Assembly: GCA_963714275.1 (NCBI GenBank)
Contig: CAVQNT010000002.1
Location: 672,001 to 736,000, forward strand
Length of the DNA stretch: 64,000 bases
Direction: 5' to 3'
Source of the DNA: Candidatus Bathyarchaeota archaeon
GTDB taxonomy: Archaea; Thermoproteota; Bathyarchaeia; Bathyarchaeales; DTEX01
Made by a program: the position numbers and the translations under genes. The notes under the pieces were generated by a model. The model saw only the letters and a list, made by a program, of their open reading frames with translations, had not been told where the DNA came from and did no database searches. Of the stretch, positions 11,552 to 47,016 are shown piece after piece. How positions within the stretch are numbered: position 1 is the first letter of the stretch; every line of letters starts with the position of its first letter.

Positions 11552-11775
11552 AATTCATCAACTAACGTTTGTACCTTTTAGAAAATAACTTTGACGCTGA
11601 AATGAACATGAATGCGCTGAAAATTGTGAAGAAAACAAAAATACGTAAACGTTAAATCAGAATCTAAAGTAGGGTCACGAAGGCTAAGGATGAACGCAAC
11701 CGCCTCGTGTGAACTTGATCCCTCACTTTGCACCACTCGCAGAAATATGCGTACGCTTTCCTCATATAAATCTTT
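11552..11775 (-). promoter_or_regulatory. his operon promoter (AAAGATTTATAT) and ~190-nt structured leader with uORF MRDQVHTRRLRSSLAFVTLL (11726-11664)
   Basis: BRE/TATA near 11775-11763; GTG uORF inside a long bulged hairpin; U-rich tract downstream. Confidence 0.55.
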
Positions 11776-11830
11776 CCATAGCAAATGACCCTAAAGGTGT
11801 ATGTTGAACTTTTTTATAAAATTTCCGAAT

Positions 11831-12925
11831 TCATGGATTATTACATCTGTAAATTCTCAGGTTGGCGGTGTTTGATTCACTATGTTTTCTGTAAAGTCTT
11901 TTCTCACCTGTTTCAGCATTACACAACACGACAGCGTTCCCAGCGTCTACTCCAATCCACCACAGCCCAACAAAGTCCTCCAGATACTGAAAAGGAATGT
12001 TCCCGATTCTTCCAAGCATCACCTCTTTTGGCTCAATAGACTCTTTTTCTGCCACATTAAGGAAGTCGTCTTTTCTCATATCCATTGAATCATTCATTGA
12101 CTTAAGGTCTAATTTGTCTATTGTGAATTGATGCCACAAATCGATGAAAAGCGTGGGTTTAACCAGCTCCTTCACAGCGATCTCGTAGACTTCGGGATCG
12201 TGTTCTTTCAATGCAACCAGGTATTCTCTGCCTAAACTGACTGATGGTTGACACAGGACGCTGCAAGGCACATGGGCAACAACTTTTAATTCAATGGGAA
12301 CAGATTTTTCCAAGCCTTTATCGACTATTGACTCGTAGAACAAATAGTCCTCTTGCGACTTCCGCTTTTCCCTTTCACTAGTGAACCTTTCGGTGCAACA
12401 TTCAGGGTATCCGAAGGCTGTCCCGAGGATTCTGTCAAACAACTCCATGGATTGTTGCGTCTGGGAATGCTGAGTTTTTGCTATGGCATATTGAGTGAGG
12501 AAATTCGTCAGTCCCTCGAAATCTTTTGTTATGATGATTTCAGAGGACGGGTTTAATGTGCCGCCTGCAAGATTTAGAGGAATTAACTTGCCTTCCGTCA
12601 GCGAACCCCAAAACTTTTCATACTCATTCAAGTTTGCAGACAAGCACTGAAAACGGTAATTCCTGGTCTCAACGTACCATGGAAGAGCCTTCACTTTTAC
12701 TTCTACGCTTTTTTGAAGGGAAGTTGGGTAACAAATCCTTATGGGATTGGGGGAATGCTCAAACCAAACGAGGTTAAGATCTGTCAAAAGTTCAATGAAG
12801 TTCGCGTAGTCTTCGCCGTGAAGTTCGAACTCCACTCTGACAGCAGGCTTCTTTCCTCGTATGATGGCTGCAAGTTGGGCGACGAAGGCTGGCTGTTTTC
12901 GGGCAAAATCTTCAATTAGCCTCAT
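11831..12925 (-). CDS. Hypothetical protein, DUF483-like Cys-motif domain
   Basis: FGYPECC and HVPCSVLC motifs; 364-aa intact ORF. Confidence 0.6.
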   Translation of the reverse strand: MRLIEDFARKQPAFVAQLAAIIRGKKPAVRVEFELHGEDYANFIELLTDLNLVWFEHSPNPIRICYPTSLQKSVEVKVKALPWYVETRNYRFQCLSANLNEYEKFWGSLTEGKLIPLNLAGGTLNPSSEIIITKDFEGLTNFLTQYAIAKTQHSQTQQSMELFDRILGTAFGYPECCTERFTSEREKRKSQEDYLFYESIVDKGLEKSVPIELKVVAHVPCSVLCQPSVSLGREYLVALKEHDPEVYEIAVKELVKPTLFIDLWHQFTIDKLDLKSMNDSMDMRKDDFLNVAEKESIEPKEVMLGRIGNIPFQYLEDFVGLWWIGVDAGNAVVLCNAETGEKRLYRKHSESNTANLRIYRCNNP

Positions 12926-13016
12926 AACACGGAAACATAGTCGAATAAACGAGATAAAGGTTCTTTCACGAATCCATAATCGTGATGAAAGAACCCCGAA
13001 AAGACATCTTTGGTGA

Positions 13017-13817
13017 TTATTTTATGTATTTTTTCAGAGCTGCCTTAACGTCTAAGCCTTCGTGGACGATGCCGCAGATCACGCGGACCATGCTTGCGGG
13101 GTCTTTGTGTTGAAAGACGTTTCTTCCGGTTGCCGCGCCAGCTCCTCCAGCTTTCACTGAATCGTAGACCATCTGGCAAAACTCCGCTTCTGTCTCGGTT
13201 TTCGGTCCGCCCGCCATAATAACAGGAACTGGGCAGCCCTTAACAACCTCTTTGAACGTTTCCAGACTGCCAGTGTAGTTGGTTTTCACGATGTCGGCTC
13301 CGAGCTCAGCGCCTATACGCGCGGCGTGCTTGACAACCTCAACGTCGTACTGGTTCTTAATCTTCTCTCCCCTTGGGTAGACCATGGCTAAAAGCGGCAT
13401 GCCCCAGTCTTCGCATATTTTGGTAACTTCGCCGAGAACCCGTAGCTGTGCAGGTTCAGTTTTCGAGCCGACGTTAATGTGTATCGATACAGCGTCAGCG
13501 CCTAACTTAATCGCCTCAAGAACGTCAGCAACCAACACTTTGTCGTTTGGGTCAGACCCTAGCGAGGTGCTTCCTGAAAGGTGCATTATGAGGCCAATGT
13601 CTTTGCCGTAGCCTCTGTATCCCGCTCTTATGATGCCTTTATGCAGAAGCACGGCGTTCGCTCCGCCTTCCGCTACCTTGTTCACGGCGGTTCTCATGTC
13701 CTCTAAGCCGCGGATTGGACCGTCGGTTAATCCGTGATCCATGGGAATGATGACGGTCCTTCCGGTGTCTCTTTTCATGATTCTGTCCAGTCTGATTCTT
13801 TTTCCGATTTCTGTCAC
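13017..13817 (-). CDS. aroA': 2-amino-3,7-dideoxy-D-threo-hept-6-ulosonate synthase (AroA', class I aldolase)
   Basis: [34 protein letters not shown]; divergent from the shikimate operon. Confidence 0.88.
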
Positions 13818-13945
13818 TTTTAATACACCTTAGTTGGATGGTTTGGTCTGAACTGCCCGTAAAATAAACGAGGTTAAGGCATAAAAGATTTTGCTTTAAT
13901 AAAAGTATATGCCATCTTGTTGTCAGTTTTTATAGATTCTTCTGG

Positions 13946-14109
13946 TCTGTTTTGTTCAACATCAGGTTTTGCTGTTTGAATAACATTTGCTGTTTTCGAG
14001 AGGCTATCTGATTTGTGTAACAATCAAGTTTTCCGTTTGCATAACAATATTAAAACTTGTGAAAAATGACCTGTTTTAAAGCATGTTTGTTTCGCGGTTT
14101 TGGAACAAT
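13946..14109 (+). repeat. Tandem copies of the 42-bp repeat (13946-13987, 14007-14048, degenerate ~14070-14109)
   Basis: TCTGTTTTGTTCAACATCAGGTTTTGCTGTTTGAATAACATT and TCTGATTTGTGTAACAATCAAGTTTTCCGTTTGCATAACAAT, period ~61-63 bp. Confidence 0.75.
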
Positions 14110-14236
14110 TTGACCAAATTTGTAGTTAGTTTCTAGGCTGAACATTTTTTATAAAACGGTCATGAAAGAGTGTTCTCTGTTTTCACAAGGCTTAAATACG
14201 ACTTAAAGGTAGAAACGTGGCGCGGAGAACCCGAAA

Positions 14237-14323
14237 ATGCACAGAAAATGTTCATTAAGGCTTCTCGGCACGATCCGTGCGTTTCGTTTCTTTAGCTGGT
14301 ATACTAAATATACCACATATTAG
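14237..14323 (+). CDS. Putative leader peptide of the lysC-aro operon, MHRKCSLRLLGTIRAFRFFSWYTKYTTY
   Basis: Translated by hand; GGAG at 14224-14227 upstream; 7 of the last 13 codons are F/W/Y; TATA-like CTTAAATA at 14191-14198. Confidence 0.55.
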   Translation: MHRKCSLRLLGTIRAFRFFSWYTKYTTY

Positions 14324-14326
14324 GCT

Positions 14327-14375
14327 GGAAGAGCCAACACATTCGCATTCCATCCGTCTCTGGTTCTTCCTTTTT
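14327..14375 (+). terminator. Hairpin plus U-tract in the lysC-aro leader (attenuator-like)
   Basis: GGAAGAGCCA (14327-36) pairs with TGGTTCTTCC (14361-70): 10 bp with one G-U, 24-nt loop, followed by TTTTT. Confidence 0.55.
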
Positions 14376-14388
14376 GGGGTTGTTGAAA

Positions 14389-15664
14389 ATGAGTGTAAAC
14401 AAAAATAGAAAGATGCTCGGTCGAATCGTCGTCAAGTTCGGCGGCACAAGCCTAGCTGACGGACTCGGCATTTTCCACGCCGCGGAATCCGTTATCAAAA
14501 AAGCGAAGCAGGGCGTTCAAGTAGTGGTTATTGTCTCAGCTATGGGAAAATCCACAGATGCTTTGATTGAAACGACTCGCCAAGCCTGCGAAGGCTCGGG
14601 TTCAAACGTGGACTTAGACGACGTCGTCGCAATGGGCGAACGCATTAGCGCTAGAATCTTTTCAGCCACGCTGAAGGCACAAGGAATATACAGTCATTAT
14701 CTGGACCCTTCACATCAAGACTGGCCAATCATTACGGACGACAATTTCGGGAACGCCAGCCCCATTTTGCCTGTTTGCGAGAAACTAATCAAACATCATG
14801 TTCAGCCATTGCTTGAGAAAGGTGTGACGGTTGTCGTTCCTGGCTTCATCGGCAGAACTGAAGACGGCAGAACAACGACGATGGGAAGGGGAGGAAGCGA
14901 CATAACGGCTTTTGTCTTGGCTCAAGCCTTGTCTGCAGACCTGATTTTGTTAGTCACTGACGTTCAGGGCATATTGACGGCTGACCCGAAAATCATCAAG
15001 AACCCTCGGAAGCTCAACGAAATATCAATCGACAACCTTATAGGGTTAGCTGACTCCGGAACCAAATTCATCCATAAAAAAGCCTTAAAGTACAAGACAC
15101 CCAAAATAGACGTAAAAGTCGTCAGCAACGCCTCCAGCGACTTGGATTTGGATGGAACCTTGATACGTGGAGGGTTCCCCCAAAACCTGCTTGTCGAATC
15201 GCACCCAGACTCAGCCGCAGCAATCACAATAGTGGGAAGGGGTCTTTCGGAATCACCTCAGACTCTTTTTAGGGTTTTCAGTGAGATTTCGAAGGCTGAC
15301 GCTCAGCTTTTGGGGATGTCTGTTAACCATAATTCCATAATTTTGTATCTGCCTTCGAAGGCTGCTGAAGGCATCCTAGAATCCATCCATTCGATCGTGG
15401 TCAGCGACGAAAAGGCTCAAGCTGATGGCGGTGAAAAAGGACCTTACTTTTGTTAGGGTTAAAGGTGTCGGGTTAGAGGACACTCCTGGAGTTGTAAGCA
15501 ACATAACTAAAGCCTTAAACTCTGAGGGTGTCAACATCTATGGGATTTTCACTATCACGTCAAGCGTTGTGATCTTCGTGGACTTTAAGGACGAGGAAAA
15601 AACGGTTCGTCTAATGAAAAAAACCTTGACAATGAATCACAATGGGCAATTTAAAGCCCTTTAA
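14389..15664 (+). CDS. lysC: Aspartate kinase with two ACT domains (frameshift near 15425)
   Basis: VVKFGGTS, VSAMG, MGRGGSD, TDVQGILTADPK. Confidence 0.93.
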
Positions 15665-15678
15665 AGGAGACGAAGAAG

Positions 15679-16774
15679 ATGCGGGAACTATGGGTTAAAA
15701 TCAATCCTAACTTATCCTTGAAGGGAAAGAAGATGGTTGTCGAAAAGACGGCTACGTTAGTTTCAGTCTTCATTGTTGAACCTCAGGACCTCGAATTAGT
15801 GAAAGAGTCGGGAGCGAAGACAACAGCAAGTTCGACTGAAAAAGGAGACATAATGATAGTAGAAGGTCCCAAAGAAATCGCCAAAGCTAGACAGACTGGA
15901 AAGAAAACGTGCATTCTTGTGACGGTGAAATCAAAAGCGGACGAAGCCAAAATCGAGGCTGCAGACTGAGGCTTCAACAGACTATGTAGCGGTTGAGTGC
16001 CCAGACTGGAAAGTCATTCCTTTAGAGAATCTCATCGCGAAGGTGCACGGGAAAACTAAGCTGCTGGCTGTTGCATTAAGCGTGCAAGAGGCAAAGACGG
16101 CGCTTGAGACTCTTGAGATAGGGGTTGACGGAATCGTGGCATACCAGACGAACGTAAATGAAATAATAAAAATCAGCGAGGTCATAAAGGAAACCAAGAC
16201 AAGAACGGATGAGGAGGAGTCAATCAAAACAATATCGCTTCTCCCTGCCAGAGTGACCGAAATTAAACCTCTTAGCTCAGGAGCTCGGGTATGCATAGAC
16301 ACATGCGATCTCATGAGGGAAGGCGAAGGCTTGCTCGTCGGATGCCAGTCTAACGGTCTTTTCCTCGTCGAAGCTGAGGTTCATGAAACACCGTTCGTTG
16401 CTCCTCGCCCGTTCAGAGTTAATGCTGGGTCAATCTCGCTTTATGTTCTTGCGCCGGACGGTAAAACCCGGTACCTTTCGGAGCTTAAAGCTGGAGACGA
16501 GGTGCTGATAATTGACCGAAACGGAAGACCGAGAACGACGAACATAGGTCGCGTAAAAATAGAGTGGCGACCGTTGCTGATGATTGAGGCTGAATGCCAA
16601 GGGAAAACTGTCAAAACAATATTGCAAAACGCTGAAACCATAAGAGTCGTCACGGAAAAAGGAAGCAAATCCGTTAAAGACATGAAAGCTGGCGACACAA
16701 TTATGGTGCGGTTTGAGGAGGGCGGCAGACACTTCGGAACCCTTGTTAAAGAAGAGAAAGTGATTGAAAGGTGA
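15679..16774 (+). CDS. aroB': 3-dehydroquinate synthase II (AroB'; frameshift near 15965)
   Basis: DWKVIPLENL, RVCIDTC, RPFRVNAG, YLSEL, LQNAETI, GRHFG. Confidence 0.92.
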
Positions 16775-17470
16775 AGCCTAGAATCTGTGTTCCGCTGCCG
16801 GTCGAAAGGCTCTCTGACCTTACATCAATGATTAAAAGAGCTGAGAACGCGGGGGCGGACTTAATCGAGATACGTTTAGACTACTTAAAAGACACCCAAA
16901 GTCAGCTGAGATGCCGTGAAAGAGGTAATCAGCCAAGTTTCAGTGCCCCTAATTGCTACAAACAGGGAGCACAGCCAAGGAGGAAAACGGGTCCAAAAAG
17001 AAGAACTGAGAGTTCAAACTTTGGTTAAAGCAGCTGAAATCGGTTTTCAGTACGTCGACATCGAATTGACCACGGCAAGTTTAGAAACAATTGTCAAAAA
17101 AATTCTGGACTGCAGTTCAAAACCCATCATCTCATTCCACGATTTTAAAGGCACGCCTTCAGACTCGGAAATGGAAAACATCGTAAATTCACAGATTAAG
17201 GCAGGAGCGTCCATCTGCAAGTTAGTCACAACAGCAAAAATCCTCGACGACAGCGTCAGATGCCTACTTTTCACTCAAAAAATGAGCAATGTCACGGACA
17301 TCGTTTGCTTCGCCATGGGCAGCCAAGGCGTCCTTTCAAGGATTCTTTCGCCTTTGTTCGGGGGATTTTTTACCTTCTCTGCGCTTGAGGTTGGCTTAGA
17401 GACTTCTTCGGGCCAAATCTCATTAACCGAGCTAAAAGAACTCTACAGGAAATTAGGTGTCAACGCATGA
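16771..17470 (+). CDS. aroD: Type I 3-dehydroquinate dehydratase (frameshifted)
   Basis: ADLIEIRLD, ISFHDF, FAMG..G..SR, GQI. Confidence 0.9.
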
Positions 17471-18348: not shown

Positions 18349-18352
18349 TAAT

Positions 18353-19224
18353 GTGGCTGACGTTGGAAAAGCGGTTGCGTATGGTGCTGTGACCGTCATA
18401 AACGCCATCTCATGCGGATTTGGTGCTGCCCTCAGCATCGACCTAAAAACTGAAGCCACCGTGAAACTGACTGACGAACCGGGTCGGATTAAGGGGCGAA
18501 TATTGTCAGACCTAGAGGAAAGCCCAGCTCTCATTGAGAAGACTGTTAGTCAAGTTTTTAGATGGTTCGATCTTGAACATGAACATGGCGCTTACGTGGA
18601 AACGCAATCGAACATTCCCATAGCACGCGGTCTAAAAAGCAGCAGCGTGGCAGCTAACGCAATAACGCTTGCATCACTAGCAGCATTGGGAAAAAAAGTT
18701 AGTGACCTAACTGCAGTCAACATCGGAGTGGACGCAGCCTTGGATGCTGGAGTTACAATTACAGGCGCATTTGACGATGCTTGCGCATCCTTTTTCGGAG
18801 GCATCGTAATCACCGACAATTTTAGAAGAAAAATTATGAAAAAGATTCAGCCTCCAGAAAAGCATCCAATTCTGATACATGCGCCCACAGCCAAAGCTTA
18901 CACGGCTGATTCGAACGTGCGGAAAATGAAAATCATATCTGAGGAGGCGAAGGCTCTTCACAGAATGGCTTTTCGCGGAGACTGGATGGCAGCCATGACG
19001 CTGAATGGATTATTATATTCAGTGGTTCTGGAATACGACCCAAACACAGCTATCGACGCACTGGAAGCAGGAGCTCAGCTGCAGGATTATCGGGAAAGGG
19101 ACCAGCAGTCGCTGCCGTTGTTCCACGAGAAAACGTCAACAGCGTAAGGGAAGCATGGAAAAAGTTTGGCGGCAACGTAATTGAGGCTAAGATTAACACT
19201 GAGAAAGCCCACAGATTATGGTGA
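18353..19224 (+). CDS. aroK: Archaeal GHMP-type shikimate kinase (frameshift near 19075)
   Basis: TVINAI, PIARGLKSSS, TGAFDDA, GLSGKGP in the shifted frame. Confidence 0.9.
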
Positions 19225-33248: not shown

Positions 33249-33252
33249 AGGC

Positions 33253-33374: not shown

Positions 33375-35775
33375 CTATTCTTCCGTTTTCTTTTCTACGA
33401 CGAATGTTGGGAACTCTTTGAGCCGTTCAGCCATTTCTCTGAGGCGTTTGTCGACTTTGTGGCTGATTGTGTTTTCCTCGAATGTTCCATCAGGTTTTTT
33501 CTTGCCAGCTTTAGTGCCAGTTAAGACTTCGATGCCTTCGTCTATGGTTTTCACCGAGTAGAGGTGGAACCTCCCATCTTTGACTGCCTCAACTATCTCC
33601 TCTTTCAGCATCAGGTTCTGAACGTTGCTTTCTGGCACCATCGCTCCTTGGTCGCCCGTGAACCCCCCTGCCTTGCACACTTCGTAGAATCCTTCGATTT
33701 TCTCGTTCACTCCGCCGATGGCTTGAACCTCGCCTTTCTGGTTAACTGAGCCTGTGACAGCAATGTTTTGTTTGATTGGGACTTCTGACAAGGCTGAAAT
33801 AAGGGCGTACAACTCTGTGCTTGAGGCGCTGTCCCCTTCGACTCCGCCGTAGCTCTGCTCAAAAACGAGGCGTGCGGAAAGGCTTAGAGGCTTGTCCCGA
33901 GCGTACTCATCCGAAAGGTAGCCGCTGAGAATCAACACTCCCTTCGTGTGGATGGGTCCGCCGAGCTTCGCTTCCCTTTCGATGTCCACGACTCCTTCGC
34001 GACCGATGCCTATGCTTGCCGTAACACGGGACGGCGTGCCGAAGCTGAAGTCTCCCATGCCCGAAACTGATAAACCGTTAACCTGCCCGACTGCTGAGCC
34101 CTCCGTGTCTATGAGGAGGACTCCGCGTTTAATCATCTCCTGAATTTTTTCCTGAATCATGTTTGACCTATAGATTTTTTCTTCAATCGCCCTTTTGACG
34201 TGGTCTGCCATGATGTAGTCGGAGTTGTCTTGAACCGCGTAAAAGTTGGCTTCCCGAATAATGTCCGCCACATCAGCGAACCTTGTGGAAAGCTTTTCTT
34301 GGTCCTCCGCAAGCCTCGACCCATACGCGATTATCTTAACAACCGCTGAAGCATCAAGATGTTTGAGGTTCCCTTTCTGGCAGAAGGCGCAGATGAAAGC
34401 TGCGTACTTGTGCATATTTTCTTCCGTGCGAACCATTGTGGTGTCGAAGTCCGCTTTAACCTTGAACAGCTCCTTGAACTGCGCGTCGTACATGTAAAGC
34501 ATCTCGTAAAGAAGCGGACTCCCGATGAGAACAACCTTAACATTCAACGGAATAGGCTCAGGCTTCAGTCCCTTCGTGGTAATGAACCCTAAGCTTTCGC
34601 CTGCCTCCTCAATCGTGACTTCCCTGTTAGTCAAAGCCCTCTTCAGGCTGTCCCACGAAAGCACATTGACAAGCGTTTCCTCGGCTGGAAGCACCAAATA
34701 GCCGCCATTAGCCCTGTGCAACGAACCGCCGTGAACCATCGTGAAGTCGGTAGTTAAGACCCCAAACCTTGCTTCCTTCTCGATTCTACCAATAAGGTTA
34801 TGGTAGGTGGGATTCCGTTCAACCACGACTGGCGCGCCCTTAAGTTCGGAGTTGTCAATGATGACCTTCACTTCGTACTTCCTGAATGGAAGCTCCTCCA
34901 TCCACGGAAATGGTTGCTGAGCCTTAGGTTCTCCGATAAACTGGTCAAGATTTTCGAGAACATCGTTCTGGACAGCGTTTAAATACTCGATGATTTCTTT
35001 AAAGTCCTTGTATTTTTCTTTAAGTTCGTTAACCGCAAACTCGATTGTGTAAAGGGCAACATCACGGTCCATCTTCTTAATTTCTTCGTCAGTCTTCTTC
35101 GCCAACCCTCTGAGCTGCCTCATTGCGTTCCTCAAGTCAGCGTTCAAAGTGTCCCTTCTCTTCTGAATTTCAGCCCTCAATTCAGGACTCAACGAAAGAA
35201 AATCTTTCTCGTTTAAAGGACGACCTTTCACGACAGGAATAGTCAACAATCCAACAGGGCTGCTTTGGAGGACGAAGCCTTCAGACTTGGGCTTTCTTGT
35301 TAAGTTCCGCGAAGAGCTGCTCCCTTTCGGTTTCTATGGCTCCAATCGTGGCTTCCCTTTTCGCAGTGTAATCCTCGCTTTCGAACGCCTTTGGAAGTCC
35401 CTTTCGCACCTCATCGATGAGGTTTGCCAAGTCCTTCTGAAAAACTTTTGCTTTCCCCGGAGGAAGACTTATCGCGTTAGGCTCGTAGGAATTCTGAAAA
35501 TTGTACACGTAACACCAATCGTTTGGAACAGGCTTTGTTTTCGCTACTTCCTCCAAAAAGTTTTTAACGGTAGTGGTTCTGCCTGTGCCAGAAACGCCTG
35601 CCGCATAAATGTTGAACCCACGTTCCTTTATGTCTATTCCGAACCTTAACGCCCGAATAGCCCTTTCCTGACCGATGATCTCTTCAAGTGGCGACAACTC
35701 CTCGGTCGTGTCACATTTCATTAAGTTAGGATCACATTCTTTCCGAAGATCCTCAGGAGCCAATTCCCTGACCAA
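33375..35775 (-). CDS. LonC-type (AAA_32) Lon-like protease (frameshift near 35285)
   Basis: IIGQERA, GTGRTT, ANGGYL, VGQVNGL, EGDSAS (Ser), NEKIEG (Lys). Confidence 0.9.
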
Positions 35776-35879: not shown

Positions 35880-37237
35880 TCATGCTTCGAAGGAACGAAT
35901 CAGTGAGGCTGCAAACTTTATGGAGTTCATGTAATCCTTGATTTTTATGTTTTCGTTGGGCGCGTGAGCCTTGGAATCTGGGTATCCGACGCCGCCTGCA
36001 GAAGCAACGGGGATTCCCATCCAATTCTTAACCACGTAAATTGGGCTTGTCCCCGCAACCGTCGGCCAAACAACAGGTTTAGAGCCATAAATCCTTTCAG
36101 CTGTTTCGATCACCCGCTTCACAAACGGGTCGCCGAGAGGAGTCTTCGCAGGCTCGTAGCCGCTGTGGTTTATGACCGTTATGTCGCCGAATCTTTGGCT
36201 TATCAAGTACTTTTTTAACCGTTGGAGCTGAACATCGGGTTTCTGAGCCTCAACCAGCCTGAAGTCAACCTTAGCCATAGCTTCGGAAGGCAGAACAGTC
36301 TTTGAGCCTGGTCCCGTGTATCCACTTCAAACCCAGCGATGTTGCATGTCGGCGAAAAACGCAGAATTTTCTGGCTCTCAATGCCCGTTACTCCGTGAAG
36401 GTATTCTTTGAGTCCCAGTTCTTCCTTGATTGTCTCTTCGTCGAAGGGCGCTTCTTTAAGCAACTGAACCTCCTTTTCGGTCGGCGGAACCACCTCGTCG
36501 TACCAGCCTGGAATCTTGATTTTCTCGTCTGGTCCTTTTAATGATGAAAGCAGCCAAACCAGCCTCCACGCTGGGTTTGGAACAACAGGAGCCATGGACG
36601 AATGCACATCCCTTTTTGGTCCCTTGGCTCTGAACTCCACGTAAAGTATGCCTTTGACGCCGAGGCTGACGTTCGGTCGGTTGTGCTGGTCCACGCCGTC
36701 GCCTTCCCACACGTAGCCATCGGCTTTCAGAAGGTCCATGTTTCCTTTTACAAAGGACCCGAGGTGTGGACTTCCAATTTCCTCCTCGCCTTCCACGAAG
36801 AACTTCAGGTTCATGGGGATTCGTCCGTAAACCGCCTTCAAAGCCTTAACAGCCTCCAAACGGGCTACGAGGCTTCCCTTGTTGTCTTCGACACCTCGAG
36901 CAAAGATTTTTCCGTCCACGACTTTGGCTTCGAAGGGAGGAGAATCCCACAGCTCCAAGGGTTCAGGAGGCTGCACATCGTAGTGGTTGTAGAATCCCAG
37001 AGTCTGCTTAGCACCTTGCAACTTGAGTTCGCCAAAAACGACGGGGTTTCCATCCCTAACCGGAATAACCTTGACATCGATTCCAGCCTCAGTCATCATT
37101 TCTGTCAAGAGATGAACGCATTCGTGTATGCCTTTGTTTTGTGCGGAAATGCTTGGCTGTTTGCAGATTTTTCGTAGGTCTTCAACGTAGCCATCAACGT
37201 GCGAGTCGATGTAACTAAACAATTTCTGCGTGGACAT
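35880..37237 (-). CDS. M20/M25/M40 family metallopeptidase (frameshifted)
   Basis: HYDVQP, RGVEDNKG, EGEEEIGS, HAPNE. Confidence 0.9.
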
Positions 37238-37828: not shown

Positions 37829-37833
37829 TCAGC

Positions 37834-39096: not shown

Positions 39097-39177
39097 TTTC
39101 CAAACCTCAACAAACTGAATATACCATTCTAAAAAAGGTTGTCCTCCAAAAAGAAGGTTACGCCACTCGTTTGATGC

Positions 39178-40705
39178 CTAATCTTGTGGTTTGTCTTGAC
39201 GTCTCTGTCTCGCCAGCAGCTTGTTTATGCCATTAATCATGGCTTCGACGCTTGCCATCACGATGTCTTCGCGGGCGCCCCTTGCGGAAATGACGTTTCC
39301 GTCTTTGCCCTCGACCTTTATTATGACCTCTGCAACAGCGTTCGACCCGCCTGTCAACGCCTCGAGACGGTACTCCGTTAACCGCACATTTGCGAGATTA
39401 TTCGTTATTTTCTGAATAGCCTTAATGGCAGCGTCCACTGGACCGACGCCTGTTTCAGCAGCAATGTAATCTTTGCCGTCAAGCGTCAGCTTCACCGACG
39501 CTGTGGGGATAACGTGGATGCCGGTTGTTACCGCGAAATCGGTCAGATTAATGATCCGTTCTTCAGCAGCCTCGCCGATGACGGTTCTGGAAATGGCAAA
39601 CAGGTCGTCGTCCGTCACGGTTTTGCCTTTGTCGCCCAAGTCTTTCACGCGGTTCACAATCTCCAGAAGCTGAGCTTCGTTCGGATGAAGCCCTGACTCT
39701 TCAAGTTCAGCCTTTATCCCGTGTTTCCCGGCGAGCTTGCCAGCTATCAGCCTTCTCCGTCTGCCTACGACCTCTGGGCTGAACGGTTCAAAAGTCAAAG
39801 GCTCCACGGTCACGCCTCGCGTGTGGACGCCTGACTCGTGCGAGAAAGCGTTTTCGCCGACGATAGCCTTGTTCGGCTGAATCATGATGCCCGTTAATCG
39901 GGAAACAAGCCTTGAGGTGCCGTAAAGGAGCTGCGTGTTTATCCTTGTCTTCTTTTTGTAGATGAGCTGAAGCCCCATCACGACCTCTTCCAGCGACGCG
40001 TTCCCCGCTCTTTCTCCTAAACCGTTCACGGCTACATGGACTTGGGATGCACCCCCGACCACTCCAGCTAAAGAGTTCGCAACAGCTAAGCCGAAATCGT
40101 TGTGGCAGTGAACGCTTAAGGGAGTCTTCAAAACGGCTTTAAGGTCCCGAATCGAGCTTTTCCATAGAATTGGGTTTCATGATGCCCACGGTGTCCGGAA
40201 TGTTGATTCGGTCTGCTCCCGCTTCTTCTGCTACTTTGCAGATTTTCTTCAGAAAAGCTATCTTAGTTCGCGTCGCATCCATCGGAGAAAACTCGCAGAC
40301 GACTCCGTGGTCCTTAATGTACTGGACTGAGTCCAGCGCAGCTTTCAAAACCTGTTCAGGAGTCATGCCTAAAGCGTACTTCATCTGGACTTCTGAGGTT
40401 GAGATAAAAGTATGAATTGAATTTGGGTTGCACGCCAAGGCAATGTCCAAATCGTTCTTCTTTGTTCGGGTTAAACAGCAGACCTCAGCCTTCAAACCTG
40501 CGGACACGATGTTTTTGATGGCTCTTTGTTCACCCTCGGACGACGATGGAAACCCAGCCTCAATCGTGTCGACGCCTAGATTGTCGAGCTGCACAGCAAT
40601 CTCCAACTTCTGTTCAGGCGTAAGAGACACGCCAGGCGTCTGCTCTCCATCCCTCATGGTTGTATCGAAAATTCTGATTTTTTCCATGTCTTTCTTATCC
40701 TCCAA
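39178..40705 (-). CDS. leuA: 2-isopropylmalate synthase family with regulatory domain (frameshift near 40140)
   Basis: [33 protein letters not shown]. Confidence 0.85.
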
Positions 40706-40715
40706 AAACCGTTAC

Positions 40716-41747
40716 CTAAAGATTCAATTCCGCAATCTCGGCAGCTATGGCTTCACCCATCTGAACCGTTGTGAGCTTGCCTCCGAAATCTGGAACCGTT
40801 AATCCCTTGCTTAGGGCTTTAACCATGCCTTCTTCGACTGCGTCAGCTGCCTTTTTACACGTAGGATCGTTGTGTTTTTCGCTTAGCCATTCAAGCATCA
40901 TCTTCGAAGCCAAAACCATCGAACACGGGTTAGCTGTGTGCTTGCCAACTCTCGTAGGCGCAGCCCCGTGGACGGGTTCAAAAAGGGCAAAGTTGTCGCC
41001 AATATTCGCGCCCGGAGCCATACCGAGTCCGCCAACCAGCTGGGCTGCCTCATCCGAGAGGATGTCGCCGAAAAGGTTCGTCGTAACAATCACGTCGTAC
41101 TCTTGGGGTTCCTTGATCAGCCTCATCGAAGCCGCGTCAACGTACTGTTCGTTGAAGATTACGTTCGGATACTTCTTTGCGACTTCCCTGCAAACCTCGG
41201 CAAAGAGCCCGCACGTCTTCCTCAAAACGTTGGCTTTGTGGACAGCTGTAACTTTTCTTTTGCCGTTTCTTTGCACCACTATTTCGAAGGCTTTTTTGGC
41301 TATGCGTTCGCTTCCTTTTCGGGTGATGACTCTTAATGCGATGGCAGCATCGTCAATCATGAACTCGAAGCCCTTGTAGAGTCCCTCCGTGTTTTCCCTC
41401 ACAATAACGAGGTCGATGTCACCTCTATGGCACGGCACCCTAGGATACGCCTTTATTGGACGAATGTTGGCGTAAAGGTCAAACATCATCCTCAACTTAA
41501 CAACAACGTCAGCAGCAGTTTCGCCCACTGGTCCCTTAAGGCATACATGAGAGTCACGAATCGCCTCAACAGTTTCTTCGGGAAGCGCAACTCCCCTTTT
41601 TTCCAGACAAGCGTCACCTGCCTCCAATTTAGTGAAGCCAAGCTTAAGACCAAACTTTTCCTGAACCGCATCCATGACGCAAAGCGTGGTTTCAGTTAAT
41701 TCTGGACCGATTCCGTCTCCCGGAATTAGGGCGACTTTGTATTTCAC
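40716..41747 (-). CDS. leuB: 3-isopropylmalate dehydrogenase family
   Basis: GDGIGPE, RENTEG, HKANV, NLFGDILSD, EPVHG. Confidence 0.9.
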   Translation of the reverse strand: MKYKVALIPGDGIGPELTETTLCVMDAVQEKFGLKLGFTKLEAGDACLEKRGVALPEETVEAIRDSHVCLKGPVGETAADVVVKLRMMFDLYANIRPIKAYPRVPCHRGDIDLVIVRENTEGLYKGFEFMIDDAAIALRVITRKGSERIAKKAFEIVVQRNGKRKVTAVHKANVLRKTCGLFAEVCREVAKKYPNVIFNEQYVDAASMRLIKEPQEYDVIVTTNLFGDILSDEAAQLVGGLGMAPGANIGDNFALFEPVHGAAPTRVGKHTANPCSMVLASKMMLEWLSEKHNDPTCKKAADAVEEGMVKALSKGLTVPDFGGKLTTVQMGEAIAAEIAELNL

Positions 41748-42244
41748 GGGTTTTTTCCTCCTTTCTTTTTCAGATGAGCGATTAAACCTCCGTCCTGCAG
41801 AATCTTGAGTATGAATTCGGGAAGCTTCGTTGCCTTGATGGTGCGGTTCCGTGTTTCGTTCACGATTCGTCCTTCTTCAAGGCTGACTGCGAGCACATCG
41901 CCTTCCTCGACCTCTTTCGAGACGTTTGGGCTTTCAAGAACAGGCAACCCGATGTTGATTGCGTTCCTGAAAAATATTCGGGCAAAGGACTCGGCAAGTA
42001 TGCACTTTACGCCAGCATACTTTAGAGCCAACGGAGCCTGCTCACGGCTTGAGCCACACCCGAAGTTTTTTCTAGCAACAATGATGACTCCGTTTTTGGC
42101 TTTTTCCGAAAAGTTCGGGTTCAACCCTTCCATCGCGTGCTTCGCCATCTCCGTTGGGTCCAGCAAAGTCAAGTATTTTCCGGGAATAATGGCGTCGGTG
42201 TTTACGTCGTCTCCGAAAACCGTGGCTTTACCTGAAACCTTCAA
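41744..42244 (-). CDS. leuD: 3-isopropylmalate dehydratase small subunit
   Basis: [23 protein letters not shown]; TTG start just after the leuC stop. Confidence 0.9.
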   Translation of the reverse strand: MKVSGKATVFGDDVNTDAIIPGKYLTLLDPTEMAKHAMEGLNPNFSEKAKNGVIIVARKNFGCGSSREQAPLALKYAGVKCILAESFARIFFRNAINIGLPVLESPNVSKEVEEGDVLAVSLEEGRIVNETRNRTIKATKLPEFILKILQDGGLIAHLKKKGGKNP

Positions 42245-42248
42245 ATTG

Positions 42249-43512
42249 CTAAGCCTCCTGAAAATATGCTGGGTCAACAATCTTGCCAGCAACAGCTGAA
42301 GCAGCAACGGTAGCTGGAGAAGCCAAGTATATTTGGGCTTCAGGGCTGCCCATTCTTCCTACAAAGTTTCTGTTAGAGGTGCTAACGCAGACTTCGCCAG
42401 CAGTAAGTAATCCCATGTGACCGCCGAAACAGGCTCCACACGTAGGATTGCACACGAAACCCCCAGCCTTCACAAAAACCTCGAACAAACCACGCTGCAA
42501 AGCCTGCATGTAAACCTCCTGCGAAGCTGGAGTAACGATCAGCCTCACGTCTCTAGCGACCTTTCTTCCATCAAGGAACCTTGCTGCTAGTTCAAGGTCT
42601 TCCAGCCGACCGTTTGTGCATGAGCCTATGAAAGTCTTGGTCAATTTTGGTTCCTTCGACGTCTTTGACTGGCTTCACGTTGTCAACCGAGTGCGGGCAT
42701 GCAACCTGAGATGTAAGCTTGTCCAAGTTCACCTCAACCGTTTTTTCGTATGTCGCATCTAGGTCGCTTGTTAAAACCTTGAATGGCTTATCGGTGACGG
42801 TTTTAACGTATTCCAGAGTAACCTTGTCTGGGTTGATTAAGCCCGTTTTGGCGCCCATCTCAACCGTCATGTTGCAGATAGTCATTCGTCCGCTCATACC
42901 GATTCCGCTAATGGCTGAGCCCGTAAACTCTACAGCCCTGTAGTTTGCGCCGTCAGCTCCGACCTCGCCAATTACGTGTAATATGAGGTCTTTGGGAGCC
43001 ACGGACTTCTGGAATTTTCCGTCCACCACGATTCTGATGGACGATGGAACCCTAAGCCAGATCGTTCCAGTGGCGAAGACTCCAGCCATCTCGGTTGAGC
43101 CTATACCCGTAGCGAAGGAGCCTACGCAACCATAGGTGCACGTGTGAGAGTCTGCGCCTACTACGAGTTCGCCTGGGAGAACGTGACCTTTCTCAACCAT
43201 GACTTGGTGGCAAACGCCTCCGTGACCTACGTCATAAAACAACGGAATGCTCTGTTCTTTGGCGAAGGTTCTCATGATTTTGTGAAGCTCAGCTGACTTC
43301 ACGGAGTCAGCGGGAACATGATGGTCCAGAATCATGACTACGCGTTTCTTGTCCCAAACTTTCGGAGTTCCGATTTCCTTGAACGCTTGGATGGCGAGTG
43401 GACCAGTGATTTCGTTAATCATTGCCTCGTCGACTTTGGCGTCTACGATGTCGCCTAGTTTAACCTCATCCTTTCCCGAAGCCGACGCGAGAATTTTCTC
43501 CGCAATGTTCAT
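42249..43512 (-). CDS. leuC: 3-isopropylmalate dehydratase large subunit (frameshift near 42640)
   Basis: [30 protein letters not shown]. Confidence 0.9.
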
Positions 43513-43541
43513 TATCTTCGTTTTTCCATGATGTCTTAATG

Positions 43542-44532
43542 TTACTTTTCGATGCCTGAGGTCTTCCTAATGGTCTTGCCAACCTGTTCAAGCGGATGCT
43601 TCTCAATCTCGTCCATGAGGGCTTTGAGCTTCTTTTCTCCAGACTTGTGATCCTCAACCCATTCTTTGGCGAAACTGCCGTCTTGGACAGCTTTTGCGGC
43701 TTTTTTCATGTTTTCTTTAACGTGGCTGTCAACAACTTTAGGACCTACTATCAGTCCGCCGTATTTTGCTGTGTCTGACACCGCTCGAAGCATGCCGATG
43801 ATTCCTTTCTGGTATATGAGGTCCATTATGAGTTTGGCTTCGTTGCAGGCTTCGAAGTAGGCTAGCTCAGCTGGATAGCCGTTTTCAACGAGCACCTCGA
43901 ACCCGTTCTTTATGAGTCTCAATTAAGCCGCCAACCAGAACCGTCTGTTCCCCAATGAGGTCGCTTTCAGTCTCATCCTTGAAAGTGGTCTCGATAACTC
44001 CAGCCCTTGTGCTGCCAAGCGCCTTCGCAGCAGCCAAAGCGGTCTCCATGGCTTTGCCTGAAGGATTCTGGTAAACAGCAACCAATGCAGGCACCCCGAA
44101 GCCGTTTTGATATGTTTCCCTTAGCCTGATGCCTGGACTTTTTGGAGCAACCATTATCACGTCCACATTTTTTGGTGGGACAATCTGTTTGAAGCGGATG
44201 TTGAAGCCGTGGGCGAAGTCCAAGGTCTTGCCTTCAGACAGGTAGGGAGTGATTGATTGCTTGTAAATGTCGGGTTGAACCATGTCGGGCACCAAAACGA
44301 AGATAACGTCAGCCTTTTTCGCTGCTTCTGAGATTTGGTAGACTTTGAATCCGTCTTTTTTGGCTCTTTCCCAAGATTCTCCTCCTGACCTGAGGCCTAC
44401 GATGACATTTAAGCCTGAGTCTCTCATGTTCTGAGCTTGCGCGTGTCCTTGGCTGCCGTATCCGATTACGGCTATTGTTTTGTCTTTCAACGGATTTAGA
44501 GATGCGTCTTTTTCGAAATATACCTTAACCAT
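43542..44532 (-). CDS. ilvC: Ketol-acid reductoisomerase (frameshifted)
   Basis: [37 protein letters not shown]. Confidence 0.95.
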
Positions 44533-44551
44533 TTTCCGAATTCACCTTTCC

Positions 44552-45073
44552 TTACTCCATTCTTGTTGATCTCATTCCTCTTGATAATGCAGTAACGCCT
44601 GTTCTCGCAATTTCCTTCAAGCCGAAGGGTCTCATCAACTCGATGAAGGCGTTTATTTTGTCCGAGTCGCCCGTGATTTCGACGACTAACGAATCGTGCG
44701 CAACGTCAACGACGTGTCCCTTAAAGATTTCAGTGTAGTTGATGACGTCCGACCTGACCTTCGTGTCAACCGTGTTCACTTTGACAAGCGCCAGCTCCCT
44801 GGAAACAGTGTTTTCAGGCTCCAGAATGCTGACTTTAACGACGTCTATGAGTTTCTGGAGCTGCTTAACGCTTTGTTCAACCATTCTTTCGTCTCCCTTG
44901 ATCGTCACCGTCAACCGGGCAAGGTCCTTCTGTTCTGCTGCTCCAACAGTTATGGTTTCAATGTTGAAGCCTCTCCTTCGGAACATGTTGGAGACGCTGT
45001 AGAGCACACCGGGCTTGTGTTCAACGATTGCTGATACTATATACATTTTTTCTTCTTTCGGCATACAAATCAC
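44552..45073 (-). CDS. ilvH: Acetolactate synthase small subunit
   Basis: EHKPGVL, RRGFNI, RELALVKV, EIARTG. Confidence 0.93.
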   Translation of the reverse strand: MICMPKEEKMYIVSAIVEHKPGVLYSVSNMFRRRGFNIETITVGAAEQKDLARLTVTIKGDERMVEQSVKQLQKLIDVVKVSILEPENTVSRELALVKVNTVDTKVRSDVINYTEIFKGHVVDVAHDSLVVEITGDSDKINAFIELMRPFGLKEIARTGVTALSRGMRSTRME

Positions 45074-46746
45074 CCAATCATTATCTTGTCAATTCCAGCT
45101 CCCGGAGGAACCATTGGGAACACGTTCTGCTCAGGCGAAATCGGCACGTCAACGACCGTTGTGACGTCGCTCTTGATTGCTGCTTTCACGGCTTTCACGA
45201 ACTCCTCTGGTGAGCCAACACGAACACCTTGAGCCCCATAAGCCTCCGCTAACTTGACGAAGTCAGGATTCTTTCCAAGGTCGATGCCAGAGTAACGTCT
45301 ATCATAGAACATCCTCTGCCACTGTGCCACCATGCCTAAAACCGAATTGTTCAGCACTATGACCGTGACTGGAATTTTCCAAGCGACCGAGGAAGCCAAG
45401 TCCTGTTCAGTCATGACGAAACTTCCGTCGCCAGCAATGTCCACAACAGGAACGTTGGGGCACGCGACTTTTGCTCCGAGAGACGCGGGAAAACCGAAGC
45501 CCATTGTGCCAAGACCGCCTGAACTGATGAACGTTCTAGGCTCGTAAGATTTCAGATATAAAGCTGCCCACATCTGGTTCTGGCCAACTTCAGTGGTTAT
45601 TATCGCGTTTTCAGGCAGTATCTTCCGCAGTTCGACTAACAGGTGTATAGGAGTCATCCCGTCCTTGTTCTCCATCTCAGCCTGCTGCTTCTTCTGTTCC
45701 TGGATCCTACTCATCCACGTTGACCGTTCCTTCTTACGGAAACTTTTTACGAGACGGTCTTGGATGGCTTTCAGGGCAATCTTCGCGTCGGCAACGATCG
45801 GAACGTGCGGTCTGATGTTTTTTCCAATCTCAGCAGGATCAATGTCTATGTGAATTATTTTTGCGTCTCGACAGAACGTTTCAGCTTTTCCTGTGCTTCT
45901 GTCCGTGAACCGCATTCCAACCGCAAGCAACACGTCTGCTTCGGGAACAATTTTGTTCGCGGTTATGGTTCCATGCATTCCCAGCATCCCAAGCGATAAT
46001 GGATGGTTTTCGGGGATGCAGCCTTTCCCCATAAGCGTTGTCGAAATGGGTGCAACGAGAAGCTCAGCTAAGGCTAAAAGCTCCTGCGACGCCCCTGAAG
46101 TGATCACTCCGCCGCCAGCAACAATAACAGGTCTTTCAGCTTGAATCAACAGTTTCACTGCTTTCTCTATCTGCAGTGGGTGAGGCTCAACGTTTGGTTT
46201 GTAACCTCGTAGACTTATACCATTGTCGAATTCCATGTTGTCCACTTCTGTCTGGGTGTCCTTGGGCAAGTCAACAAGCACAGGTCCAGGTCGACCTGTT
46301 GAGGCGACATAAAAAGCTGTTTTCACTATCTTGTGAATCTCTTTGGCACTCGTGATTTGAAAGTTGCATTTGGTTATCGGTGTCGTTACGCCTACTATGT
46401 CGGTTTCCTGAAAAGCGTCTTTCCCTATGAAGGCTCTTGGAACGTTGCCTGTGAAAGCAATGATCGGCGAAGAATCCATGTATGCGTTGGCTATGCCTGT
46501 GACGAGGTTTGTTGCCCCAGGTCCAGAGGTTGACATGCAAACGCCGACTCGTCCACTTGCGCGGGCGTATCCGTCAGCCGCGTGAGCTGCACATTGTTCA
46601 TGCCTCATTAGGATGTGTTTTATGTCTGAGTCGTAAAGCACGTCGTAGATGGGTAACACGTATCCTCCAGGTATGCCGAAGATGACTTCGACTTTCTGTT
46701 TCTTCAAGGATTCGATTAGAGCTTTGGCGCCTGACATTTTCACCAT
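45070..46746 (-). CDS. ilvB: Acetolactate synthase large subunit
   Basis: RHEQ.AAH.ADGYAR, SGPGATN, DAFQE, GDGSF..NN ThDP motif. Confidence 0.96.
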   Translation of the reverse strand: MVKMSGAKALIESLKKQKVEVIFGIPGGYVLPIYDVLYDSDIKHILMRHEQCAAHAADGYARASGRVGVCMSTSGPGATNLVTGIANAYMDSSPIIAFTGNVPRAFIGKDAFQETDIVGVTTPITKCNFQITSAKEIHKIVKTAFYVASTGRPGPVLVDLPKDTQTEVDNMEFDNGISLRGYKPNVEPHPLQIEKAVKLLIQAERPVIVAGGGVITSGASQELLALAELLVAPISTTLMGKGCIPENHPLSLGMLGMHGTITANKIVPEADVLLAVGMRFTDRSTGKAETFCRDAKIIHIDIDPAEIGKNIRPHVPIVADAKIALKAIQDRLVKSFRKKERSTWMSRIQEQKKQQAEMENKDGMTPIHLLVELRKILPENAIITTEVGQNQMWAALYLKSYEPRTFISSGGLGTMGFGFPASLGAKVACPNVPVVDIAGDGSFVMTEQDLASSVAWKIPVTVIVLNNSVLGMVAQWQRMFYDRRYSGIDLGKNPDFVKLAEAYGAQGVRVGSPEEFVKAVKAAIKSDVTTVVDVPISPEQNVFPMVPPGAGIDKIMIG

Positions 46747-46749
46747 TTT

Positions 46750-46878
46750 AGATCCTTCCTAGTTATCTTTGGTTCAAAGGATCTTTCGGTTTGCATGTCC
46801 TCATCGAGAACTGCACAATAGACATTGGGAATGTTTAAAAATCTTTTTGGGCTATGTGCTGGAGAAAACATTGGGAAT
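46750..46878 (-). promoter_or_regulatory. ilvB proximal promoter, repeated ACATTGGGAAT sites and SD-occluding hairpin
   Basis: BRE/TATA AAAAAGATTTTTAAA near 46848-46834; ACATTGGGAAT at 46822 and 46868; AGATCCTT/AAGGATCT inverted repeat (46784-46777 with 46757-46750) overlaps the GGAAGG SD. Confidence 0.55.
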
Positions 46879-46884
46879 CTCGTT

Positions 46885-47016
46885 TTAGAAGCGGAGGAAA
46901 AGGTCCCTCCGTACCCGAATATCCCTCACTTTTTTGTCCTCCAGAGGAAACGAAACCGAGACTACTATCAACAGGATACTTATAAGCTTTTTGAACTCGT
47001 TGTTCTGTGTAAGCAT
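46885..47016 (-). CDS. Putative ilv-leu leader peptide MLTQNNEFKKLISILLIVVSVSFPLEDKKVRDIRVRRDLFLRF (or short form MRDIRVRRDLFLRF from GTG 46929)
   Basis: Translated by hand; LISILLIVVSV run; GGAGG SD before the internal in-frame GTG. Confidence 0.5.
   Translation of the reverse strand: MLTQNNEFKKLISILLIVVSVSFPLEDKKVRDIRVRRDLFLRF

Follow-up and report, generated by a model that had tools for sequence, protein, structure and literature searches.

A conserved leader cassette with a pathway-specific codon upstream of hisG, ilvB, leuA and trpE in Bathyarchaeia: a candidate system of hungry-codon +1 frameshifting

A stretch of 64,000 nucleotides (nt) from a Candidatus Bathyarchaeota archaeon (contig CAVQNT010000002.1, positions 672,001 to 736,000; referred to here as the window) contains short leader open reading frames (ORFs) ahead of its hisG, ilvB and leuA genes that share one arrangement of codons, found also ahead of trpE in related genomes. 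This arrangement, the cassette, consists of a Shine-Dalgarno (SD) sequence and a start codon followed by RGG, NAU, NNN, a codon 5 that is usually NUU, and a single cognate codon. It was present upstream of hisG in 14/14 leaders, of ilvB in 37 leaders, of leuA in 52/52 genomes and of trpE in 29/29 readable loci, with a cognate codon that follows the pathway: CAY (His) in hisG leaders, CUC (Leu) or GUA (Val) in ilvB leaders, AUY (Ile) in leuA leaders and UGG (Trp) in trpE leaders. Sequence comparison supports the view that the his and ilv leaders belong to one conserved amino-acid leader system that extends to four pathways. The best reading of the cassette, which we consider moderately likely, is that a hungry cognate codon triggers a programmed +1 frameshift of the prfB kind; we infer the frameshift event, its site and its control by tRNA charging from the conserved codons and frames described below. 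With a slight balance in favor, Bathyarchaeia and at least one family placed outside the class may regulate His, Trp, Leu and Ile/Val synthesis by modular ‘frameshift attenuators’.

The his and ilv leaders had first been linked by a reading of the window made without database searches (the sequence-only reading), which reported the same 12-mer, AAAGTGAGGGAT, in both. Exact copies lie at 11718–11729 and 46921–46932 on the minus strand, each opening a short ORF, and no further copy occurs in the window at up to one mismatch; shuffled versions of the window gave a mean of 0.38 matches, with two or more in 5/100 shuffles. The two exact copies, ahead of hisG and ilvB, are the sole ones in the whole genome (2,643,548 bases; 2.64 Mb); 10 more sites differ by one mismatch, which makes 12 compared with 7 for the reversed control. 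The elements described around the 12-mer were recovered as well, with TATA-like boxes 41 nt (his, ATTTATATG) and 53–54 nt (ilv, GCTTATAAG) upstream, SD-like runs ahead of both copies (GAGTGGTG in his, GGAGG in ilv), and parallel short ORFs reading V/M-RDQVHTRRLRSSLAFVTLL to a stop (11726–11664) and V/M-RDIRVRRDLFLRF to a stop (46929–46885), with His and Val, respectively, at codon 6. The original chance estimate for the match (~0.004) ignored multiple testing; what decides against chance is that the start codon, RGGNAU and cognate codon are kept in all orthologous leaders examined. The 12-mer is the A-rich spacer, the start codon and the first two codons (the conserved RGG-NAU) of the leader cassette. 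Fourteen other candidate RTGAGGGAT sites in the genome were inspected and rejected, all being coding, antisense or without a downstream gene.

Two aspects were missed by the sequence-only reading. What matters downstream is not the short ‘MRD’ frame; a start-less +1 frame (+2 in his) is kept open into the structural gene. In addition, the window contains the leader system a third time, at leuA (48579–48544), with the enzyme itself in the +1 frame.

The leuA locus lies upstream of the ilv leader and contains the following features:

48544–48579, minus strand: leuA frame-0 short ORF, ATG GGG TAT TGC TTT ATC to TAA (MGYCFIQPLPK and stop), SD-led and kept in 52/52 genomes
48567–48565, minus strand: leuA P-site codon TTT, followed at 48564–48562 by the Ile sensor codon ATC
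47037–48575, minus strand: LeuA ORF (2-isopropylmalate synthase type), in the +1 frame of that ATG (NF002085, 535 bits)

The ATG of the short ORF is in the −1 register to LeuA, whose catalytic N-terminus is encoded upstream of the first in-frame ATG, and there is no canonical in-frame start before DTTLRDGEQ. LeuA occupied the +1 frame of the short ORF in all 52 genomes compared (30 + 14 from the same order, 6 from other orders of the class and 2 from a family listed as another class), and no in-frame start was conserved. All 52 leaders had ATG as start, TTT as codon 5 and ATC (33) or ATT (19) as codon 6, with an SD-like run ahead of the short ORF in 49. Among the first 30 genomes, 13 had an open LeuA frame without any ATG, GTG or TTG upstream of DTTLRDGEQ, and elsewhere such codons were scattered and non-conserved. 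The sequence TTTAT was invariant across the 52 leaders even though the LeuA frame (GCU UUA UCN) permits synonymous change. The leader of one genome, ATG AGG GAT CGT TTT ATC TAA, is a direct link to the ‘MRD’ type. As a control, 6/6 paralogous leuA copies had ordinary ATG or TTG starts. Outside the class, 12/14 pattern matches were judged to be chance, as was a second match in G056 (L211). Two tandem frame-0 cassettes, both opening into the LeuA frame, were observed in leaders of one genus (L130, L132, L133 and L189–L192), where AGG GAT CAT TGG GTW (Val) is followed by GGG GAT CGY TTT ATC (Ile).

The same layout was seen for trpE, a gene that, like argJ, was not found in the window’s genome (91% complete) and is present in 56/121 genomes of the order. 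The 29 readable loci all had an SD, ATG (28) or GTG (1), AGG/GGG, GAT/AAT/TAT/GGT, NNN, NTT and TGG, with Trp as codon 6 and TrpE (GI[VMA]FG...), again without a conserved in-frame start, in the +1 frame. The TrpE frame starts right past the TGA of ATGA in 21/29 leaders, and in 8 the stretch between the upstream stop and codon +60 lacks any canonical start. In 7/29 the fifth and sixth codons are CTT TGG, one base off the prfB site CUUUGA.

In the ilv leader the +1 frame is a bridge toward the start of the gene. The features are:

46979–46987, minus strand: TATA-like box GCTTATAAG of putative function, with CTTTTTATTTG-type boxes equally distant in relatives
46930–46942, minus strand: SD GGAGG and A-rich spacer before the short ORF (GGAGG or AGAGG 7–8 nt ahead of the start in ilv leaders)
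46885–46929, minus strand: ilv frame-0 short ORF, GTG to TAA (MRDIRVRRDLFLRF and stop), codons compared in 37 ilv leaders
Within 46885–46929, minus strand: ilv cassette 1, AGG GAT ATT CGG GTA, with the Val sensor at 46914–46912
Within 46885–46929, minus strand: ilv cassette 2, AGG GAC CTT TTC CTC, with the Leu sensor at 46896–46894
46740–46925, minus strand: ilv +1 ORF of 61 codons without a 5′ start codon, beginning past the TGA of GTGA and ending in the TGA of ATGGTGA
45070–46746, minus strand: ilvB (acetolactate synthase large subunit; NCBIfam TIGR00118, 796 bits), followed by ilvN, ilvC and leuCDB-type genes

The end of the +1 ORF overlaps the ilvB start (46746). Thirty ilvB loci were examined among the 80 matches listed, of which 19 had [AG]TGAGGGAT 135–185 nt ahead of ilvB, 8 had leuA coding sequence directly upstream and 3 had an ATG GGG TAT variant; 17 more ilv leaders were obtained from downstream of leuA in other genomes. 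Codon 6 was CTC (Leu) in 20/37 leaders and GTA (Val) in 17/37, and in most leaders another unit follows in frame and closes with whichever of the two codons is absent from codon 6. Codon 5 was mostly CAC or CGG in place of NUU. In 20 leaders (906 codons per frame), no stop codon occurred in the +1 frame, compared with 74 in frame 0 and 48 in the +2 frame, and the 17 further leaders likewise had none in +1 compared with 60 and 66 in the other frames. The +1 frame begins just past the TGA of ATGA or GTGA and is stop-free to the ilvB start in every ilv leader, ending at −9 to +20 relative to the ilvB ATG (as ATGA in 9/20). No ATG, GTG or TTG occurs anywhere in 7/20 of these +1 ORFs, and the remaining 13 contain scattered ones. 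Between nt 15 and 42, the ratio of nonsynonymous to synonymous variation (pN/pS) was 0.12 in the +1 frame compared with 1.03 and 1.04 in the other frames. Before nt 15 (0.53 vs. 0.34) there was no clear difference between frames, and farther downstream the +1 frame stays open without conservation of the peptide.

Several further observations concern ilv leaders. A conserved box, ACCCUCUGAAAC, about 75 nt past the start of the short ORF (alignment columns 84–96) can pair with the SD AGAGG, without covariation, and in the window the SD of ilvB can pair with sequence 30 nt upstream. The palindrome TCCTCTGGAGGA at window positions 46937–46948 contains the SD of the ilv short ORF. In two loci (L041 and L070), a leuA-type leader (ATG GGG TAT CGT TTT ATC) and about 15 LeuA codons are fused directly upstream of ilvB, with the +1 frame of the fused leader open to the ilvB start in L041; from the sequence, this looks like a leuA deletion in which the cassette was retained.

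In the his leader the cassette occurs twice, in two successive frames:

11763–11771, minus strand: TATA-like box ATTTATATG, a putative promoter element, with AGATTTATAT kept in 7/8 aligned his leaders
11730–11740, minus strand: SD-like run GCGAGTGGTGC before the short ORF (AGTGGTG or AGTGGTT in most of the 14 his leaders)
11664–11726, minus strand: his frame-0 short ORF, GTG to TAG (MRDQVHTRRLRSSLAFVTLL and stop), present in 14/14 leaders
11723–11709, minus strand: his cassette 1, AGG GAT CAA GTT CAC, with the sensor His codon CAC at 11711–11709
11684–11725, minus strand: his +1 frame, opening at the TGA within GTGA and closing with TAG (GIKFTRGGCVHP and stop), containing cassette 2
11692–11690, minus strand: second His codon, CAT, of cassette 2, 19 nt past the first His codon
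11552–11683, minus strand: remaining his leader, +2 frame open up to hisG, broken here by an extra T at 11637
10565–11551, minus strand: hisG (ATP phosphoribosyltransferase; NCBIfam TIGR00070, 157 bits; TIGR03455), first gene of hisG-hisD-hisC

The GGUG of the SD-like run is complementary to CACC of the 16S ribosomal RNA 3′ tail GGAUCACCUCCU. When the window was aligned with the hisG upstream regions of 13 relatives (60–94% HisG identity), a conserved block extended from the start codon onward and the flanks diverged. All 14 short ORFs encode M-R-D-x-[VI]-H-x-R-R-L.., starting with GTG (7), ATG (6) or TTG (1), and the His codon (CAC or CAT) of the first cassette is codon 6 in 13 leaders and codon 7 in L015. 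A second unit of the GAU UGC GUU CAU type, near-identical to the first, lies 19 bases past the first His codon and is therefore in the +1 frame, where GUU/AUU/UUU-CAU was found in 14/14 leaders. The +1 frame then stops 1–3 codons after this unit in 13/14 leaders and 11 codons after it in L016. Between nt +36 and 12 nt before hisG (622 codons in 14 leaders), there were 41 stops in frame 0 and 55 in the +1 frame, compared with 2 in the +2 frame. The +2 frame ends 5–11 nt past the hisG ATG in 12/14 leaders, and in 6/14 a stop lies just upstream of this frame, whose 5′ end has no start codon. The window is one of the two exceptions, owing to the extra T at 11637 in a T run; as this base is absent from every covering contig in four independent metagenome runs, an indel of the assembly or the strain probably explains the break. 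A single −1 shift in his was rejected because in L014 and L015 the first His codon is immediately followed by a stop in the +2 frame.

Comparison of the four leader types shows what is kept and what varies. ATG, GTG and TTG interchange as starts of the short ORFs, and frame 0 is short (6–11 codons in leuA, 7–24 in trpE and 6–19 in ilv). The distance from the end of RGGNAU to codon 5 is 3 nt in all four types. Codon 5 is NUU in 29/29 trpE leaders (CUU 7, UUU 4, GUU 14, AUU 4), in 52/52 leuA leaders (UUU) and in both his cassettes of 14/14 leaders. The conserved A-site codon that follows is a sense codon (CAY, AUY, UGG, CUC or GUA) and not a stop; a stop directly after the Ile codon occurs in just 23/52 leuA leaders. 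The shifted frame is LeuA or TrpE itself (+1), or forms a stop-free bridge to the gene start in ilv (+1) and his (+2). A generic scan for this architecture over all collected loci gave 123 matches, of which 119 were his, ilv, leuA or trpE leaders, and in a scan of the window’s own genome just the leuA and ilv leaders fit. The correspondence between codon and pathway, which the sequence-only reading had put forward as a check on its proposal, thus holds across all four.

Other amino acid genes gave no comparable pattern. The aro leader had been counted as a member of the family, and no such cassette was found upstream of the aspartate-kinase, aroA′ and DHQS genes. No cassette was seen at thrC, where 20/30 loci were readable by pattern, all with an ordinary in-frame start (the remaining 10 were left out), or at pheA, where the 28/31 readable loci all had ordinary in-frame starts. 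A pattern search with ATGRGGNATNNNNTT in 3 genomes returned 48 matches compared with 13 for the control; 45 were examined, and the real ones were just trpE, leuA and his leaders, while L279, L283, L292, L297, L309, L310, L281 and L271, which were examined closely, were ordinary genes or chance matches. A cassette-like MRGTT ORF (ATG CGG GGT ACA ACG.., window 54000–54030, plus strand) is in the −1 register to thrC and runs across its start, with thrC in the +1 frame of the ORF; it was rejected, since its conservation ends at the genus and relatives start thrC at a TTG or ATG of its own. Two short ORFs of other kinds were also observed. One, GTG to TAA (MARRTRKCTENVH and stop; window 14217–14258, plus strand), lies about 115 nt ahead of the aspartate-kinase gene and is not of the cassette type. 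The other, GTG TTT TAT TTT GG., precedes pheA in one genus (L314, L316 and L322, with variants in L320 and L321) and encodes M-F-Y-F-G.. (variant F-Y-W-G); this run of aromatic codons looks like a different, classical-looking leader design.

We propose a hungry-codon +1 shift because the leaders combine a G-rich RGGNAU, a 3-base spacer, a U-rich codon, a factor-dependent codon and a productive +1 frame. In this model, ribosomes would start in the short frame 0 behind the promoter and SD. With cognate aminoacyl-tRNA plentiful, frame 0 would be read to its stop within a few codons and no downstream product would result. With cognate aminoacyl-tRNA scarce, the ribosome would pause at the sensor codon with its A site empty, and the peptidyl-tRNA on NUU would slip by +1, aided by the G-rich, SD-like GGNAU three bases upstream. 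For LeuA and TrpE, the +1 frame would be the enzyme itself. In ilv, it would run stop-free to a stop overlapping the ilvB start, so that ilvB would be translated by coupling. In his, the two cassettes, offset by one base, would demand two successive His-dependent shifts (0 to +1 to +2) to reach hisG. A ribosome terminating at the overlap would then reinitiate on ilvB or hisG, and in the window the paired SD of ilvB might be opened by translation of the leader. Tandem cassettes could implement AND logic, with two His codons in successive frames (hisG), or OR logic, with Leu and Val codons in one frame (ilvB) or Val and Ile codons (leuA in one genus).

A number of observations weigh against this interpretation. 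The genomes compared are related, and the counts given above overstate the number of independent cases. In the +1 frame, which always reads Gly-Ile/Val there, the variable nt 4, 7 and 10 fall on third codon positions; such +1-like variation right after the start therefore fits a shift at codon 2 (RGG to GGN), with the sensor codon irrelevant to the shift. In ilv, the P-site codon is CAC in the commonest cassette (12/20) and CGG in the window type, neither being U-rich, and CAC, judged by eye, cannot re-pair in the +1 frame. Pairing of GGNAU with the 16S tail requires a one-base bulge (judged by eye, with no energy computed). In 9/29 trpE leaders the third codon of the TrpE frame is ATG or GTG, and these trpE genes could therefore start conventionally with GAGGGAU as SD. 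An SD is present at ilvB itself and at some hisG genes, and coupling may therefore not be obligatory. Finally, each cassette contains one sensor codon and not a run as in bacterial leaders.

One rival explanation is that a fixed share of ribosomes slips constitutively at codon 2 (RGG to GGN) regardless of amino acid supply, with the frame-0 ORF regulating in some other way, for example if the start region were masked by a ribosome stalled at codon 6, or if the transcript were shielded from premature termination while its leader is translated. In its favor, all four leader types encode G-[IV] in the +1 frame from nt 5, and the variation at nt 7 and nt 10 is of the synonymous type; AGG-G and GGG-N retain 2–3 base pairs after a +1 slip (by our own pairing), and the short ORFs are followed by T-rich tracts. 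However, such a slip leaves unexplained the second, +1-frame His cassette 19 nt downstream in 14/14 leaders with the +2 frame open to hisG, as well as the invariance of TTTAT(C/T) in 52/52 leuA leaders despite synonymous freedom. Purifying selection on the ilv +1 frame is strong solely past nt 15, and a ribosome stalled at codon 6 would reduce expression during starvation, not raise it. We regard constitutive slippage as unlikely. Less probable again is that no frameshift occurs and that translation starts non-canonically, for example at AUH (nt 8–10) or the next codon, using GAGGGAU or GGGG as SD, with the short ORF competing or tuning. GAGGGA acts as an ordinary SD at other places in this genome and in relatives (for example ahead of asd at C6:461508, and in locus L279), and the 9/29 trpE leaders with ATG or GTG at codon 3 of the TrpE frame would agree with such starts. 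The other 20, in contrast, have ACG, GCG, ACC, GCC, GTA, GTT, ATT, GCA or GTC at this position, AUH is replaced by GUY in 3 leuA leaders, and the spacing from GAGGG to AUH is just 0–1 nt. Nor does initiation of this kind fit the his +2 frame, which has no conserved start and is preceded by a stop just upstream in 6/14 leaders, or the 7/20 ilv +1 ORFs that are without any canonical start.

The motif might instead be where a common transcription factor, RNA-binding protein or small RNA binds, or belong to an RNA switch, with the reading frames incidental, an explanation to which we assign very little probability. The motif lies ~15–30 nt past the expected transcription start, a location usual for archaeal repressors, and direct repeats (GATTGCGTTCAT twice in L015; GGGATCGTC twice in ilv leaders) and the palindrome TCCTCTGGAGGA (46948–46937) would also suit a binding protein. 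A binding site, however, cannot account for 0 stops in 906 + ~900 codons of one frame, for enzymes without start codons, or for a pathway-specific codon at a fixed position. The sequence-only reading had favored a family of uORF/RNA switches, and while the his and ilv leaders do form one conserved system, the RNA-switch mechanism was not supported: a search of the whole 64 kb window against Rfam 15 gave 0 matches at the gathering threshold, as did one of locus L003, and the four leader segments of the window showed no excess folding stability relative to shuffles (z = +0.99, −0.29, −0.83 and −1.33). The 12-mer had been described as the 5′ arm of a hairpin, and GGGAU does pair with a downstream CCC in minimum-energy folds, but in segments that fold no better than shuffles. 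An RNAalifold consensus of 12 ilv leaders (−9.6 kcal/mol, 1 covarying pair) indicated no conserved structure, and neither this consensus nor the four z-scores support terminator or antiterminator hairpins.

No tRNA genes were found in the window, and the 39 tRNAs found by ARAGORN included no quadruplet-reading tRNA for RGGN. A tRNA with an 8-base anticodon loop, ‘gcgg’, was called outside the window (G000 C5:136338–136415); the expanded loop may be real, or it may reflect an indel in the assembly of a tRNA-Arg or tRNA-Pro gene. Frame breaks split many window genes, among them ilvC, leuC, the paralog of leuA, genes for an M20 peptidase and Lon, and a thrC copy that is in three pieces; the positions concerned are 43542–44532, 42249–43512, 39178–40705, 35880–37237, 33375–35775, 51950–53223 and 11637. 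Because the one break that was checked (11637) is an extra T absent from the contigs of four independent runs, the assembly probably carries homopolymer indels.

Operon-level sensing of amino acids in archaea is largely unknown, and a conserved cassette with a swappable sensor codon would offer a directly testable mechanism. If the proposed hungry-codon shift is correct, it would mark the first time that hungry-codon frameshifting is seen to control genes in nature, and cellular archaeal genes would gain their first case of programmed +1 frameshifting. The 5′ ends of LeuA and TrpE would then be mis-annotated across an archaeal class, a widespread uncultured sediment lineage, with gene callers forced to wrong starts. 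The cassette could also have potential in synthetic biology as a compact amino-acid-specific translational sensor. In the open-access literature, nothing relevant was found on archaeal leader peptides, T-box-like systems or frameshifting and upstream ORFs in Bathyarchaeia, or on hungry codons together with leader peptides or frameshifting with isopropylmalate or anthranilate synthase.

A close parallel is the autoregulated bacterial prfB gene (release factor 2), whose frameshift site is described as CUUUGA with an SD 3 nt upstream (PMC10798248). Both systems begin with a short ORF in frame 0, and in both the full product (LeuA and TrpE here) is encoded in the +1 frame. The slippery P-site codon of prfB, CUU-U, has a candidate counterpart in NUU-N (CUU-UGG in 7 trpE leaders), which most ilv leaders lack, and the SD of prfB has one in the G-rich RGGNAU at the same 3-nt distance. 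The A-site codon of prfB is slow to decode, as the sensor codon is predicted to be under starvation. In prfB a low supply of the decoding factor raises the frequency of the shift and so provides negative feedback, as proposed here for the cassette. The cassette differs from prfB in that the A-site codon is a sense codon and not a stop (UGA), and the molecule sensed would be charged tRNA instead of release factor. In addition, the host is an archaeon, the cassette lies at the very start of the mRNA (codons 2–6) and may occur in tandem, and the +1 frame of his and ilv would be just a bridge to a coupled gene.

In bacterial his, trp, leu, ilv, phe and thr leader peptides, a ribosome awaiting charged tRNA acts as the sensor. 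The archaeal leaders resemble these in having a short SD-led ORF with codons for the amino acids of the pathway upstream of the same pathways. In contrast to bacterial attenuation, they usually have a single cognate codon per cassette and not runs of them, and they have no conserved terminator or antiterminator hairpins. The proposed output is a change of reading frame and not transcriptional read-through, and in leuA and trpE the ‘leader’ overlaps the N-terminus of the enzyme itself. T-box riboswitches offer a functional analogy, as they sense tRNA charging in a pathway-specific manner through one specifier codon in the leader; here, however, there is no structured RNA and no Rfam match, and the codon would be read by a translating ribosome.

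For starvation-induced frameshifting that yields functional trans-frame proteins, the review by Atkins et al. (2016, PMC5009743) states that ‘no examples are known’. Unlike the hungry-codon frameshifting described by Gallant and the Ty1 site CUU-AGG-C, the shift proposed here would be a designed and conserved route for the expression of biosynthetic enzymes. In a 2021 review (PMC8211752), the −1 shift of fucA1 is given as the sole programmed frameshift shown in a cellular archaeal gene, with +1 frameshifting reported just for an archaeal virus, and the rate of the antizyme +1 frameshift is described as reporting a metabolite (a polyamine sensor). Like antizyme and fucA1, the leuA and trpE leaders may represent cellular genes that need a programmed frameshift for their full product. 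Antizyme differs in shifting at a stop codon and sensing polyamines, and fucA1 in shifting by −1, at A-AAA-AAT, without a known sensor, whereas in the Bathyarchaeia a +1 shift at a sense codon would sense the charging of a pathway-specific tRNA.

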